NCBI GenBank assembly: GCA_045606105.1
Contig: JAZURI010000007.1
Span: forward strand, 50,875-114,874
From: Spirochaetia bacterium
GTDB lineage: Bacteria; Spirochaetota; Spirochaetia; CADAEX01
Direction: 5' to 3'
DNA length: 64,000 nucleotides
Shown: positions 46,271-50,058 of the stretch, piece after piece
Layout: each line of letters begins with the position of its first letter
Numbering within the stretch: the first letter of the stretch is position 1
The notes under the pieces: generated by a model
What the model was told of the DNA's origin: nothing
The model's input: only the letters and a program-made list of their open reading frames with translations
The model's database searches: none
Translations under genes and position numbers: made by a program

Positions 46271-46969
46271 TCAGTCTGTATTCCTGAGCTTCAGTGGGAT
46301 GCCTGCATCCCTGACAATTTCTGCCATGGCTTCCAGCCTTGACAGCGGATAAGGGTGTTCTGCAAAGCCTTTGTCCAATGTATTTCCAGGAACATATCCT
46401 GCCAGTACATAAAGTTCGGTTCCTTTTACAAGAGTACAGATCTTTCTTATGTCATCCTCATCCACGATACCCGGAACCACGGTGGTCCTGAACTCATGGC
46501 TTATTCCCGAAGCCTTTATGATATCCACGGAGCTGATTATCTTCTCCTGCAGTATTTTTCCTGCACCCTCTTCTCCCGGCAGCAGCAGACCGTACTTTTC
46601 AGGAGAGGTCTTAATATCCATGGCAATATAGTCAGGCTTTATTTCAAGTATTTTTTCGGGAAATGTACCGTTTGTATCCAGCTTGATCAGATATCCCATT
46701 TTCCGTATTTCGGAAACCAGGTCTCCCAGATCGTTGTGAACCAGGGGCTCTCCTCCGGATATACAGACTCCTTCGATGACATTCTTTCTTTTTTCAAGGT
46801 ATGAAAGTACGGAATCAATATTCTCCAGATCATCGGCCCGGTTCAGGACCAGCTCCGGATTATGGCAGTAAGGACAGCGCAGATTACAACCGGGGAGAAA
46901 AATCACGGATGCGACTCTCCCCGGATAATTGATAAGTGTGGTTTTTATAAAACCGGCTCTGGTAATCAC
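46271..46969 (-). CDS. nrdG: Anaerobic RNR activating enzyme (radical SAM)
   Basis: GCNLRCPYCHN, SGGEP, EFRTT; last gene of the nrd operon. Confidence 0.93.
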   Translation of the reverse strand: MITRAGFIKTTLINYPGRVASVIFLPGCNLRCPYCHNPELVLNRADDLENIDSVLSYLEKRKNVIEGVCISGGEPLVHNDLGDLVSEIRKMGYLIKLDTNGTFPEKILEIKPDYIAMDIKTSPEKYGLLLPGEEGAGKILQEKIISSVDIIKASGISHEFRTTVVPGIVDEDDIRKICTLVKGTELYVLAGYVPGNTLDKGFAEHPYPLSRLEAMAEIVRDAGIPLKLRNTD

Positions 46970-46970
46970 T

Positions 46971-47450
46971 TTACACTACAGCAGCTTCGGCGATACCGAG
47001 CTTTTCCTTGATGTCCCTGATGTTATAGGCTCTTGAAAGCTCCTTGCCGTCAGCATTGTAGAAGATGACTGTAGGAACAGCAAAGATGTTGCTGCCTCTT
47101 GCCTTGTCGAGACCTTCCTTGTCGTCTACGGAACAGAAGATTCCGTCCAGGCCTGTTGATGCAATGAAATCCTTTACTGCAGGACAGTTTGGACAGGTTT
47201 TCTTTGTAAAGCATACAAATGAAGCAGGGGCGTTTTCATCGGCCGGAGCTGCGGCTTCCTTGTTTTCAGGATCAAAGCATACTCTCTGCTTGAATTCTGA
47301 TTTTTTACCCTTGTTCCAGTTCTTTACAGATCTGTAGTAGCCTACGATTCTTGTATAAACCTCGGTTTCCTTTCCTTTTACATTGCGGAGTTCCTCTCTG
47401 CATTCAGCCAGTTCCTTGTTGATTACATCTATATTTCTTTCCTGTGTCAT
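46971..47450 (-). CDS. Stand-alone NrdD glycyl-radical domain fused to a glutaredoxin/thioredoxin-like domain
   Basis: EVYTRIVGYYR...WNKGKKSEF (NrdD C-terminal radical loop) followed by TCPNCP and AVPTV; own AAGGAG SD. Confidence 0.88.
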   Translation of the reverse strand: MTQERNIDVINKELAECREELRNVKGKETEVYTRIVGYYRSVKNWNKGKKSEFKQRVCFDPENKEAAAPADENAPASFVCFTKKTCPNCPAVKDFIASTGLDGIFCSVDDKEGLDKARGSNIFAVPTVIFYNADGKELSRAYNIRDIKEKLGIAEAAVV

Positions 47451-47462
47451 AATATTCTCCTT

Positions 47463-49580
47463 TCAAATAAGTGTTACTTCCGAAAGCTCTGCTTTCTCTT
47501 TTTCCAGTGCTGCAATCTTTTCACGCAGCAGCTCTTCCTGCTCCCTTCTGCACTTCTCGCAGGTGAAATGCTCTCCCTTCAGGTAGCCGTGGATAGGACA
47601 TACCGAGAAGGTAGGTGAGATTGTGAAGTACGGAAGCCTGTAGTTATAGGCAATGGACTTGACCAGATTCCTGCAGGCCTGCCAGTCGTCGATGGCCTCA
47701 CCGATGAAGCCGTGGAATACTGTTCCGCCTGTGTAGAGGGTCTGGAGATCATCCTGGTGATCCAGTGCCTCAAAAATATCGGTTGTATAGTTTACCGGAA
47801 GCTGTGTGGAGTTTGTGTAGTAAGGATCTGCCTCTCCCGAAGCTATGATTTCAGGATATGCTTCCTTGTCATGCTTTGCCAGTCTGTAGCTTGTGCTTTC
47901 GGCTGGTGTTGCTTCAAGGTTGAAGAGATCTCCTGTTTCCTCCTGGAATTCAGAAAGCTTGTTTCTCATGAAATTGAGGATTTCCACCGCAAAGTCCTTT
48001 CCTTCCTGTGTGGAGATATCCTTGCCCAGGAAATTGAGGAGACATTCGTTCATACCGCAGATACCGATGGTAGAAAAGTGGTTGTTGAGGTGCTGCAGGT
48101 ATCTTTTTGTGTATGGGAAAAGTCCTGTGGTCATGAGACGGTTGATAACCTTTCTCTTGATTACCAGAGATCTGGCTGCCAGCTTCATGAGGTTTTCCAG
48201 TTTCTTGAAAAATTCTTCCTTTGAACCGGAAAGATATCCGATCTTAGGGAGATTGATGGTTACTACACCGATGGAACCGGTAAATTCGTCTGAGCCGAAA
48301 AGTCCTCCGCCCCTTTTTCTGAGCTCTCTCTTGTCCAGCTGGAGTCTGCAGCACATGGAGCGTACATCTCCCGGATTGAGATTGCTGTTGATGAAGTTCT
48401 GGAAGTATGGAGTTCCGTACTTTGCTGTCATTTCGAAAAGAAGTCTTGCATTAGGGGAGTCCCAGTCAAAGCTTCTGGTGATGTTGTATGTAGGGATAGG
48501 ATACTGGAAGCCTCTTCCGTTTGCATCTCCGTCCAGCATGAGCTCGATGAAGCACTTGTTGATGATATCCATTTCCCTCTGACAGTCGCCGTAGGTGAAG
48601 TCCATTTCCTTTCCGCCTACAACTGCAGGCTTGTCCTTGAGGTCGTCAGGTACAACCCAGTCCAGGGTAATGTTTGTGAACGGTGCCTGTGAACCCCATC
48701 TGGATGGAGTGTTTACACCGAAAACAAAGCTCTGGAGCCCCTGCTTTACCTCTTTTTCTCCCAGGTTATCCACCTTTACGAAAGGAGCGATATATGTGTC
48801 AAAGCTTGAAAGAGCCTGTGCACCTGCCCATTCGTTCTGCATGATTCCCAGGAAGTTGACAATCTGCTGGATCAGTGTAAGGAGGTGTTTTGCCGGCTTT
48901 GATGTGATTTTGTCCGGAACTCCTCCCAGACCCTCTGCAATGAGCTGTCTCAGTGACCAGCCGGCACAGTAGCCGGAGAACATTGAAAGGTCGTGGATAT
49001 GGAAATCTGCGTTCTTGTGGGCATTGGCGATTTCCTCCGGATAGATATTCTTAAGCCAGTAGTTTGCGGTAATGGTTCCGGAATTGTGGAGAATGAGACC
49101 ACCCAGTGAGAAGTTCACGTTTGCATTCTCATTTACTCTCCAGTCCGACTGGGACAGATAGCCGTCCATGGTGTTGTTGATGTCCAGGATAAGCTTCTTG
49201 CTGTCTCTCATGGCCTCGTGCTGGGCTCTGTAAAGGATATATGCCTTTGCAATCTTTGGAACCGATTCCATCATCACCACTTCGATGATATCCTGGATTT
49301 CCTCGATAGCCGGGGCTGAATTCGGGTGTCTTCCCTGCATGAACTCCCTGAGCTTATCCTCTGTCTTTTCTGTAAGCTTTTCTGTCAGGTCCTTGTCTTC
49401 CATTCCCTGAACCGCACTTACTGCCCTGCTTATGGCACTTGCAATCTTCCATCTGTCATATTTTTCAATGGAGCCGTCTCTCTTGACAATACGCTTTACA
49501 ACAAATGAGCTTGCTGTGTTGTCTTCTTCTGATTCAAGATGGAGAAACTCCTTCCAGTCGTTTGTATTTCCCAAAGCCAT
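47463..49580 (-). CDS. nrdD: Class III anaerobic ribonucleoside-triphosphate reductase, large part (lacks the glycyl-radical loop)
   Basis: ATP cone (IVKRDG), FHIHDL, YCAGW, SMCCRL, EATPAES, GGTVFH, CPIH...CEKC; start at ATG after GGAGGAGG. Confidence 0.95.
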   Translation of the reverse strand: MALGNTNDWKEFLHLESEEDNTASSFVVKRIVKRDGSIEKYDRWKIASAISRAVSAVQGMEDKDLTEKLTEKTEDKLREFMQGRHPNSAPAIEEIQDIIEVVMMESVPKIAKAYILYRAQHEAMRDSKKLILDINNTMDGYLSQSDWRVNENANVNFSLGGLILHNSGTITANYWLKNIYPEEIANAHKNADFHIHDLSMFSGYCAGWSLRQLIAEGLGGVPDKITSKPAKHLLTLIQQIVNFLGIMQNEWAGAQALSSFDTYIAPFVKVDNLGEKEVKQGLQSFVFGVNTPSRWGSQAPFTNITLDWVVPDDLKDKPAVVGGKEMDFTYGDCQREMDIINKCFIELMLDGDANGRGFQYPIPTYNITRSFDWDSPNARLLFEMTAKYGTPYFQNFINSNLNPGDVRSMCCRLQLDKRELRKRGGGLFGSDEFTGSIGVVTINLPKIGYLSGSKEEFFKKLENLMKLAARSLVIKRKVINRLMTTGLFPYTKRYLQHLNNHFSTIGICGMNECLLNFLGKDISTQEGKDFAVEILNFMRNKLSEFQEETGDLFNLEATPAESTSYRLAKHDKEAYPEIIASGEADPYYTNSTQLPVNYTTDIFEALDHQDDLQTLYTGGTVFHGFIGEAIDDWQACRNLVKSIAYNYRLPYFTISPTFSVCPIHGYLKGEHFTCEKCRREQEELLREKIAALEKEKAELSEVTLI

Positions 49581-49593
49581 ACCTCCTCCCAAA

Positions 49594-50058
49594 TTACCAG
49601 GCTTTTTCGCTTAGCTTTTCAATTTCGCTGACAAATTCGTCAACGTTGTCAAAATGTCTGTAAACTGACGCAAATCTGATATAAGCCACCTTATCCAGCT
49701 TGAAAATGCTCCGGAGCACCAGTTCTCCCAGCTCTTCGGTGGATATGTCGTTGGTCAGCTGACATCTGAGATAAACCTCACTCTCGATCTCTCTCAGGAT
49801 CTCTCTCAGCCTCTCCTCCGGCACGGCCCGCTTCTCCAGGGATTTGCGTATTCCTCTCTCTATTTTTCCCATATCAAAGAGCTCCCTGCTTTTATCACGC
49901 TTTATTACAGTAAGAGGCGTTTCCTTGATATGCTCGTAGGAGGTGAAGCGATAATGACATGCAAGACATTCCCGTCTTCTTCTTATGGAAGATCCGTCTA
50001 CATTCTGCTTGCTTTCAATAACCTTATCGTCAATGCTGCCGCAGGCCGGACATTTCAT
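49594..50058 (-). CDS. nrdR: Transcriptional repressor NrdR
   Basis: MKCPAC, IRRRRECLAC..RFTSYE, VAYIRFASVY. Confidence 0.97.
   Translation of the reverse strand: MKCPACGSIDDKVIESKQNVDGSSIRRRRECLACHYRFTSYEHIKETPLTVIKRDKSRELFDMGKIERGIRKSLEKRAVPEERLREILREIESEVYLRCQLTNDISTEELGELVLRSIFKLDKVAYIRFASVYRHFDNVDEFVSEIEKLSEKAW

Follow-up and report, generated by a model that had tools for sequence, protein, structure and literature searches.

The textbook picture of a glycyl-radical enzyme is a single chain with a radical loop of its own, and the standard example is NrdD, the catalytic protein of the class III ribonucleotide reductases (RNRs). The one-chain enzymes of T. maritima (4COI/4U3E), phage T4 (1H78) and Prevotella copri (8P23) each work with the activase NrdG. 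The locus described here encodes a protein of the same barrel family and lies in a stretch of 64,000 nucleotides (the window) of contig JAZURI010000007.1, from the assembly GCA_045606105.1 of a Spirochaetia bacterium of the gut. In common with one-chain NrdD, its products have an ATP-cone, a finger loop, a putative zinc site, an R-x-x-G-Y glycyl loop and an NrdG partner; unlike one-chain NrdD, the glycyl loop is found on a second polypeptide, the break is flanked on both sides by about 27 additional helix residues, the putative zinc site is of the Cys3-His type, and a thioredoxin-fold domain follows the glycyl loop.

Other described systems resemble this locus in part. With the NrdD2 enzymes of Neisseria bacilliformis and T. 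maritima, it shares a double-cysteine finger loop, a barrel cysteine and a putative active-site glutamate (PMC4493059), and no gene like that of pyruvate formate-lyase (PFL) was found in the spirochaete genome, a lack that has also been argued for NrdD2 organisms (PMC4390871). Unlike NrdD2, its redoxin is covalently tethered to the radical chain and is not a free thioredoxin, and its finger loop reads MCCR, not SCCR. GrcA (YfiD) is likewise a small, separate protein that bears a glycyl-radical loop and needs a radical S-adenosylmethionine (SAM) activase. However, GrcA backs up an intact PFL, whereas the spirochaete small chain is the only radical domain and comes from the family of the NRDD C-terminus, not from Gly_radical. 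According to a 2026 review, the formate lyases alone among the classes of glycyl-radical enzymes have known small spare-part proteins (PMC13450708). Catalytic subunits that are encoded by two genes and reassemble are described for the class II NrdJa/NrdJb of Pseudomonas aeruginosa and for NrdA of Aeromonas phage Aeh1 (PMC9669993, PMC2988022), and with NrdJa/b the detached piece is again the C-terminal zinc-finger part (PMC9669993); these proteins belong to other RNR classes, however, and their detached piece carries no radical. The split in Aeh1 NrdA was made by a homing endonuclease (PMC2988022), whereas none is present at the spirochaete locus. A redoxin fused to a radical-bearing RNR component, and serving there as RNR reductant, is found in NrdB of Facklamia ignava (PMC6187632), but this is a class I protein with an N-terminal glutaredoxin on a ferritin-like subunit, while the spirochaete enzyme is of class III and has its redoxin C-terminal to the glycyl loop.

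As far as their available text extends, two large phylogenies of RNRs treat split class II enzymes and not split class III (PMC9669993; bioRxiv 10.1101/2022.04.23.489257). The literature on split and spare-part enzymes yielded split class II RNR, split phage NrdA, T4 vs.6 and GrcA, and no split NrdD; no description of a split NrdD was found in the full-text literature searched, to which subscription journals and RNRdb do not belong, and its absence from print is not thereby proven. The arrangement is real and conserved, and apparently an undescribed variant of a well-known enzyme; what sets it apart is a small chain in which redoxin domain and radical glycine are combined, together with the added helix pair at the break.

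Read from its sequence, the locus probably encodes a working class III (glycyl-radical) RNR composed of two different chains together with the activase NrdG. In the reading of the window's open reading frames (ORFs), nrdR, a large nrdD, a 159-aa gene and nrdG follow one another head to tail on the minus strand (Table 1). The large chain covers profile positions 1-532 of the 562 in Pfam NRDD (PF13597) with 594.8 bits (cut-off 26.2), and scores of 1086.9 bits with NF006126 (cut-off 548) and 485.3 with TIGR02487 (cut-off 326.35) place it in the class III RNR family; with the T. maritima NrdD structure 4COI, phmmer gave an E of 2e-38. A motif search of the translated large chain found no R-x-x-G-Y anywhere in it, and the glycyl motif that characterizes an NrdD is present when the two chains are taken as a unit, not on the same polypeptide. 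Residues 27-59 of the small chain match NRDD positions 531-562 of 562 with 36.6 bits (cut-off 26.2), and NF006126 is similarly divided, its positions 2-657 being covered by the large chain and 648-682 of 684 by the small one. The motif RIVGY occurs at residue 34 of the small chain and identifies Gly37, in RIVGYYR, as the radical glycine; it and 16 neighbouring residues are invariant in an alignment of 56 small chains. A Pfam scan of the small chain at E<=0.01 returned NRDD, Glutaredoxin and Thioredoxin_2 only, with no match to Gly_radical. As a two-chain unit, the enzyme belongs to the class III RNR family, and its small chain lies outside the GrcA family. The nrdG product, with 186.4 bits against TIGR02495 (cut-off 131.15), is the cognate radical-SAM activase of a class III RNR.

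The large ORF is listed from a TTG at 49592 (47463-49592, 709 aa), but the ATG at 49580, with GGAGG just upstream, is the likelier start as judged from the sequence, and gives 705 aa; residue numbers of the large chain refer to the 709-codon frame, and those from the ATG are lower by 4. Its C-terminal end, CPIHGYLKGEHFTCEKCRREQEELLREKIAALEKEKAELSEVTLI, is followed by the TGA stop at 47463-47465. Between this TGA and the ATG of the small gene are twelve bases, AAGGAGAATATT, and the GTG start of nrdG lies one base beyond the TAA of the small gene. A model's earlier note on this DNA, the sequence-only reading, had claimed a split class III RNR with its radical loop on a separate small protein between nrdD and nrdG, a large NrdD that lacks R-x-x-G-Y and ends soon after its zinc site, and a Shine-Dalgarno AAGGAG of the small gene's own, all of which is borne out by the division of the NRDD profile, the motif search and the 12-nt spacer. 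The missing terminus does lie on the next gene, as the note had it, but does not begin that gene, as 29 residues, mostly one helix, precede EVYTR; the note was silent on the thioredoxin-fold domain with a CPNC motif at small-chain residues 75-152.

A sequencing error, a recent nonsense mutation and a recoded stop were each ruled out as the source of the break by its conservation, by independent assemblies and by stop usage. TGA closes 417 of the 816 long open frames in the genome and is the commonest stop. Contigs from three DNA runs, belonging to three studies, span positions 46900-47900 with 4-5 substitutions each and no indel, and in all three the stop, the spacer and the start of the small gene are unchanged. 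Conservation was followed in 110 loci selected for their resemblance to the small protein, of which 30 come from relatives in the class and 80 are the best of 570 matching stretches of GTDB species genomes; one-chain relatives are outside a sample selected in this way. The end of a large gene lies directly upstream on the same strand in 104 of the 110, and in all 104 the large gene stops before the glycyl loop (TAA in 72, TGA in 23, TAG in 9). The gap between large and small gene ranges from -23 to +357 nt (median 26); the two ORFs are in different frames at 71 of these loci and in the same frame at 33, and in the nearest relative (L004) a 13-nt gap puts the small ORF out of frame with the large one. 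The small gene is directly followed by nrdG in 105 of the 110 loci. Cultured organisms are among the 110, namely Treponema parvum ATCC 700773 and T. lecithinolyticum ATCC 700332. An RNA-library contig over 47029-47494 covers small-gene sequence and reaches 32 nt into the large gene; coverage by the metatranscriptome contigs has holes at 46968-47001 and 47512-47579, on which no interpretation is placed. An intein, an intron or a homing-endonuclease origin was rejected, the gap being 12 nt with a Shine-Dalgarno and nothing inserted, as was a single open frame of 879 aa: the two ORFs share a frame across one TGA, and the small frame is one of 163 aa. Two spirochaete-type small genes (L045 and L104) occur on contigs binned as Oscillospiraceae and Paratractidigestivibacter, through mis-binning or transfer.

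In the genome, 99% complete, no second NRDD or one-chain NrdD was found, the large and small chains being the only matches, nor was the catalytic domain of class I/II enzymes (PF02867). The split enzyme thus stands as the sole RNR found there. The small gene is present in one copy.

The break has a distinctive anatomy. In 82 measured split pairs, the large chain continues for 23-39 residues (median 27) past the last cysteine of the zinc site, and 26-33 residues precede EVY in the small chain; a further 22 pairs were missed by the pattern and are similar in appearance. Among one-chain relatives, the link between zinc site and glycyl region is 4 residues in 55 of 73, 9-15 in 4 and 26-30 in 14, so that split forms have about 55 residues where an ordinary NrdD has 4. 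The insert-bearing one-chain relatives include P0143-P0149, P0154 and P0167, and have the insert at the position of the break. When large-chain residues 140-709 were co-folded with the small chain, using 55 homologues of each, the score was 0.84 (runs of 0.84, 0.83 and 0.85), whereas the best of three controls scored 0.00; this mark is attained by 116 of 157 solved complexes and by 2 of 215 mismatched pairs, counts that are only rough because custom alignments were used. The runs agreed in at least 89% of contacts, with partner pLDDT (predicted local distance difference test) of at least 76. One predicted interface sets large-chain residues 681-707 against small-chain residues 5-7, 10-11, 13-14, 17-18 and 20-21, a helical spacing, and since residue 689 of the large chain touches both 17 and 21 of the small chain, the predicted helices are antiparallel. 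In the other, small-chain residues 24-63 lie in the barrel, with strand 29-33 alongside large-chain residues 661-665. The sequence-only reading had supposed an obligately two-piece RNR and had suggested a search of relatives for the same breakpoint and a co-fold of the two chains; the uniform stop at the 104 loci and the separation from the controls agree with it, as does the lack of a one-chain NrdD or class I/II domain in the genome.

The remainder of the small chain is a low-complexity linker, about 15 to 70 residues long among relatives and with pLDDT below 50 at residues 66-69, followed by the domain at residues 75-152. Its predicted fold is strand-helix-strand-helix-strand-strand-helix (pLDDT about 90 in the single-chain model), and Foldseek returned 122 PDB matches at E<=0.001, the best 50 of which are nearly all thioredoxins, with DsbD-gamma and DsbH besides. 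C86 and C89 of the CPNC motif and P126 of the cis-proline motif P126-T127 are invariant in the 56 small chains; in its CxxC, cis-proline and fold, this is a thioredoxin-fold domain. Small-chain homologues number 1119 (87-279 aa), every named one being from Spirochaetia or Treponema, and among the 120 listed, RIVGYYR is found in 119 and CPNC in 116. The same C-terminal CPNC domain is also present in one-chain NrdDs of 796-910 aa from sources that include Margulisiibacteriota and Spirochaeta. A phage contig from human faeces (MT835493.1; L178 37-4356) has nrdG, a one-chain 802-aa NrdD with CPNC and an adjoining thioredoxin-reductase-like gene, whose product scores 296.9 bits with TIGR01292, under the cut-off of 343.45; from its sequence, the trio looks like a portable three-gene module for anaerobic synthesis of deoxynucleoside triphosphates (dNTPs).

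A mechanism in three steps is proposed. In the first, the last ~27 residues of the large chain and the first ~27 of the small chain would pair antiparallel, like a hairpin that has been cut in its loop, and the glycyl loop would take the place in the barrel that it has in one-chain NrdD; assembly through the two added helices with the loop in the barrel is, on the model, very probable. In the second, NrdG would install the radical on Gly37, from which it would move to C414 or C415 of the finger loop for reduction of the nucleoside triphosphate, a sequence of events that is held with nearly the same, high probability. In the third, the active-site disulfide between C209 and C414 or C415 would be re-reduced by the tethered CPNC domain, which would in turn be recharged by the thioredoxin reductase system of the cell, making the enzyme a thioredoxin-type (NrdD2-like) RNR with a built-in reductant; the balance tips only slightly in favour of this last step.

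The third step draws on the cysteines of both chains. C209, M413-C414-C415-R416 and E560 are invariant in 56 aligned large chains; C209 aligns with T. maritima C125, C414 and C415 with C329 and C330 of its SCCR motif, and E560 (in N-L-E) with the glutamate of its N-I-E. C414-C415 provides the third active-site cysteine (the second of the finger loop) of NrdD2. NrdD2 is defined by this third cysteine plus a glutamate, some members also keeping a methionine (PMC4493059), and the active-site glutamate of N. bacilliformis NrdD is Glu438 (PMC4390871). The 99%-complete genome has no PFL-like gene, and it encodes one thioredoxin reductase over cut-off and two to three thioredoxins. Given the redoxin motifs, the NrdD2 residues, the lack of PFL, the thioredoxin reductase and the phage gene cassette, a built-in reductant is the likeliest role of the redoxin domain, and the small chain probably donates electrons in addition to carrying the radical.

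Several considerations weigh against this account. The finger loop keeps the methionine of the MCCR group, a residue that has been tied to formate chemistry (PMC9669993 section 2.5), and formate in the gut could therefore serve as reductant. Curated redoxin models all fall below cut-off (PF00462 Glutaredoxin, 22.4 vs 22.9; PF13098 Thioredoxin_2, 19.6 vs 27; TIGR02190, 16 vs 99.3), so the small-chain domain, as judged by its sequence, is a divergent redoxin outside any assigned subfamily. That E560 is the glutamate that defines NrdD2, the counterpart of N. bacilliformis Glu438, is presumed from the alignment. None of the confident contacts listed by the co-fold involves the thioredoxin domain or finger-loop residues 413-416, and hence neither the docking site of the redoxin nor the distance from glycine to cysteine can be inferred from it. 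Moreover, the halves of a split gene can pass such a co-fold through their likeness to solved one-chain structures (4COI, 1H78 and 8P23), in which case the result would show likeness more than binding. The RNA-library contig may be DNA carry-over. Finally, the small chain is free of any redoxin in 36 of the 51 split regions with an adjacent small gene in the survey described below, and a redoxin is therefore not required for a split enzyme.

For that survey, 151 Spirochaetota genomes with a completeness of 90% or more, the source genome among them, were sampled evenly, and NRDD was present in 82. Classes were assigned to 65 large-gene ends at which the NRDD match stops between profile positions 525 and 539: 36 are split, with an adjacent small gene for the glycyl loop only (42-96 aa); 15 are split, with an adjacent small gene for the glycyl loop and a CxxC domain (CPNC, CRNC, CHNC, CINC, CPYC or CRSC); 8 stop after the zinc site, and for 1 kb or more there is no ORF for a glycyl loop; 5 are one ORF with an insert of 60-130 residues at the junction; and 1 is at a contig edge. 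The calls for L125, cut by a contig end, and L174, which looks mis-framed, are unsure. About 15 further genomes have an ordinary one-chain match only. In the sampled Spirochaetota, most NrdD genes are split.

The small chains that consist of the glycyl loop have only 12-18 residues ahead of the motif, compared with at least 30 in all 15 redoxin-bearing ones, and this type is therefore without the added helix. Such mini-proteins, of 42-66 aa, occur in many Spirochaetota families (L116-L177, e.g., L117, L123, L129 and L165), and their partner large genes end CP(Y/H)xH... A third type of NrdD, similar to that of E. coli (RRITGYLVG), is also found split, at L113 (G125:C85) and L115 (G107:C3), where the large gene ends past a CxxC zinc site, a 56-58-aa ORF with RRITGYLVG follows 6-26 nt on, and nrdG comes next. 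Within Spirochaetota, the same junction is broken in three NrdD types. At least eight sampled genomes (G175, G187, G087, G170, G114, G204, G154 and G070) have two to three small genes, some of them unlinked and some lying on other contigs.

The history of the break was examined on a tree of the barrel alone, with 113 rows (47 for split forms and the others for one-chain forms, of which 29 have a redoxin and a short link, 13 have an insert and 24 lack a redoxin), from which P0171 (a long branch), proteins of fewer than 600 aa and loci with less than 380 aa of large chain were excluded. On this tree (IQ-TREE quick, LG+G4), the split state has to change seven times, at least four of the changes being forced by starred branches, and constraining the split rows to one group was 132.8 log-likelihood units worse (approximately unbiased, AU, p 0.001). 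Split and one-chain forms were interleaved also in the FastTree tree that preceded it. Given these seven changes and the rejection of a single group, fission or re-fusion at the NrdD junction must have occurred several times.

Why the gene is split, and what the redoxin is for, may be explained in other ways. The fission may have been neutral, a helical insert between zinc site and glycyl loop having allowed a harmless break of the gene; this is possible, if rather unlikely. Consistent with it are the 14 of 73 one-chain relatives that have a 26-30-residue insert exactly at the break, the interleaving of split and one-chain forms on the tree, the five genomes with one ORF and a junction insert of 60-130 residues, and the precedent of class II NrdJa/b (PMC9669993) and phage NrdA (PMC2988022), which function as ordinary enzymes despite their split. 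Neutrality fits less well with breakage of the same junction in three NrdD types of one phylum, however, and drift alone would hardly explain the extra copies of the small gene.

A second proposal takes up the supposition of the sequence-only reading that the radical carrier is exchangeable and that oxygen damage would cost only the 159-aa protein: the small chain would be a detachable, consumable cartridge for radical and electrons. Free or loosely held, it would be loaded by NrdG, docked by its helices, supply electrons through its tethered redoxin during turnover, and be swapped after oxygen had cleaved it at Gly37, sparing the 705-residue body. The idea concerns the reason for the split and is compatible with the two-chain enzyme favoured here; it is considered unlikely, though it would be in keeping with the glycyl loop having its own gene abutting nrdG (a 1-nt gap here, adjacency in 105 of 110 loci), with a small gene and nrdG that stand without a large gene at L047, with the two to three small genes of at least eight sampled genomes, some unlinked, with the orphan second copy L090 in one metagenome-assembled genome (MAG), and with the precedent of GrcA/YfiD for PFL (PMC13450708). 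That split forms are not one clade (seven changes, at least four forced, AU p 0.001) is consistent with repeated selection, but repeated fission may also be neutral. The source genome, moreover, has only one small gene, and the extra copies elsewhere are of the glycyl-loop-only type and not redoxin-bearing. The matched helices suggest a tight, permanent-looking tether, and the N-terminal piece (helix and strand) that cleavage at Gly37 leaves behind could remain bound and block a newcomer. If the proposal were nonetheless true, repeated fission would reflect selection for a removable glycyl-radical domain, and replacement of such domains would be a general repair strategy extending beyond PFL.

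A role for the redoxin in activation rather than turnover, keeping the cysteines of the zinc site and glycyl region reduced while NrdG installs the radical, is quite unlikely. It has a precedent in the thioredoxin reported to take part in activation of E. coli NrdD (PMC4390871, citing Padovani 2001), and a tether joins the domain to the glycyl loop, beside the zinc site. However, the large chain appears to have the full set of cysteines and glutamate of the thioredoxin-type enzymes, the phage cassette combines this domain with a gene for a reductase, as would fit a steady supply of electrons, and the genome has no PFL as an internal source of formate. There is next to no chance that the small chain is a true analogue of GrcA, a spare radical domain for the rescue of an intact one-chain NrdD, or of a PFL, from another part of the genome: it is indeed a small stand-alone protein with a glycyl-radical loop, but neither a one-chain NrdD nor a PFL-like gene is found in the 99%-complete genome, and the loop matches the NRDD profile and not Pfam Gly_radical. 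An artefact, a pseudogene or a TGA read through (e.g., as selenocysteine) to give one chain is hardly credible, because the situation that invites it, two ORFs in one frame 12 nt apart across a TGA, is not that of the nearest relative (out of frame) or of most of the loci (TAA in 72 of 104, out of frame in 71 of 104), TGA is the commonest stop of the genome, three assemblies concur, and the small gene has its own Shine-Dalgarno and start.

The two-chain NrdD, which is widespread in nature and occurs in cultured oral treponemes, offers a ready-made system for studying access of the activase to a loop that is buried in the barrel, for asking whether a glycyl-radical domain can be loaded in trans and then delivered, and for asking whether an oxygen-damaged RNR can be repaired by exchange of a subunit. 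The small proteins (42-190 residues) would be convenient substrates of NrdG for structural work. The tethered CPNC domain bears on the reductant of the large MCCR group of class III enzymes, the motifs of which allow formate or thioredoxin (PMC9669993 section 2.5). Annotation and censuses of RNRs that demand a C-terminal glycyl motif will misjudge split enzymes.

Table 1. Features of the split RNR locus, in window positions.
Feature	Positions	Strand	Evidence and remarks
nrdR, repressor of RNR genes (zinc ribbon and ATP-cone); first in the cluster	49594..50058	-	TIGR00244, PF22811 and PF03477
nrdD, large chain of the class III RNR	47463..49580	-	PF13597, NF006126; without R..GY
ATP-cone, large-chain residues 34-126	49215..49493	-	PF03477, 62.6 bits
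Finger-loop motif M413-C414-C415-R416, double-cysteine type	48345..48356	-	sequence; invariant in 56 aligned large chains
Zinc-site motif C665-x2-H668...C678-x2-C681, three Cys and one His	47550..47600	-	sequence alignment
Added C-terminal helix (residues 682-709) of the large chain; TGA next	47466..47549	-	tail lengths, co-fold
12-nt spacer with Shine-Dalgarno AAGGAG of the small gene	47451..47462	-	sequence; no difference among three independent DNA assemblies
Small chain (159 aa), made up of N-terminal helix, glycyl-radical loop, linker and thioredoxin-fold domain	46971..47450	-	
Added N-terminal helix (residues 5-24) of the small chain	47379..47438	-	co-fold interface; residues 7-22 helical when modelled as a single chain
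Glycyl-radical loop region, residues 25-60; Gly37 codon GGC at 47340-47342	47271..47378	-	PF13597 positions 531-562
Low-complexity linker, residues 61-74	47229..47270	-	gap-rich alignment region; pLDDT
Thioredoxin-fold domain, residues 75-152; C86-P-N-C89 at 47184-47195; cis-Pro motif P126-T127	46995..47228	-	
nrdG, radical-SAM activase	46271..46969	-	TIGR02495; 3' of the small gene

Among the remaining features, the putative zinc site of the large chain consists of three cysteines and one histidine, compared with the four cysteines by which the NrdD family is recognized; C665, H668, C678 and C681 are all invariant in the 56 sequences, and CxxH...CxxC is found in 82 of 82 measured partners. 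The nrdR product scores 167.8 bits with TIGR00244 (cut-off 124.65), in addition to its PF22811 and PF03477 matches. A 16-mer NrdR-box consensus has two matches in the window against 2.05 expected by chance, none of them near the operon.

Further variants were seen among the surveyed loci. In one genus (L145, L148, L149, L152 and L157), which accounts for five of the eight ends that stop after the zinc site, a helix-tailed large gene has no glycyl-loop ORF within 1.6 kb, and one genome of this genus has a small gene (a 106-aa frame, apparently redoxin-free) about 600 kb away. At L161, L163, L168, L172 and L176, all of one genus, a single ORF has an Asn/Lys/Glu-rich insert of 60-130 residues between zinc site and glycyl loop, a form that may represent a stage before fission or one after re-fusion. 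The orphan small gene at L090 (3001-3447), with glycyl loop and CPNC, is located between a gene for a large surface protein and hypothetical genes, in a MAG that also has a full operon (L056), and at L047 (3001-3815) the small gene and nrdG stand behind genes of aromatic/branched-chain amino acids with no large gene upstream. An NRDD match reads through a TAA at G075:C1:268525-270375, and at G071:C1:392855-394464 another large gene falls into two pieces and has an internal TGA; both may represent broken genes or yet other forms of splitting. In the ESM Atlas, clusters of 131-142-aa proteins from Bacillota (up to 460 members) are annotated as NRDD plus Glutaredoxin with scores of 0.84-0.89, under the 0.9 line, and hint, as a lead only, at small chains of radical loop plus redoxin beyond the Spirochaetota.

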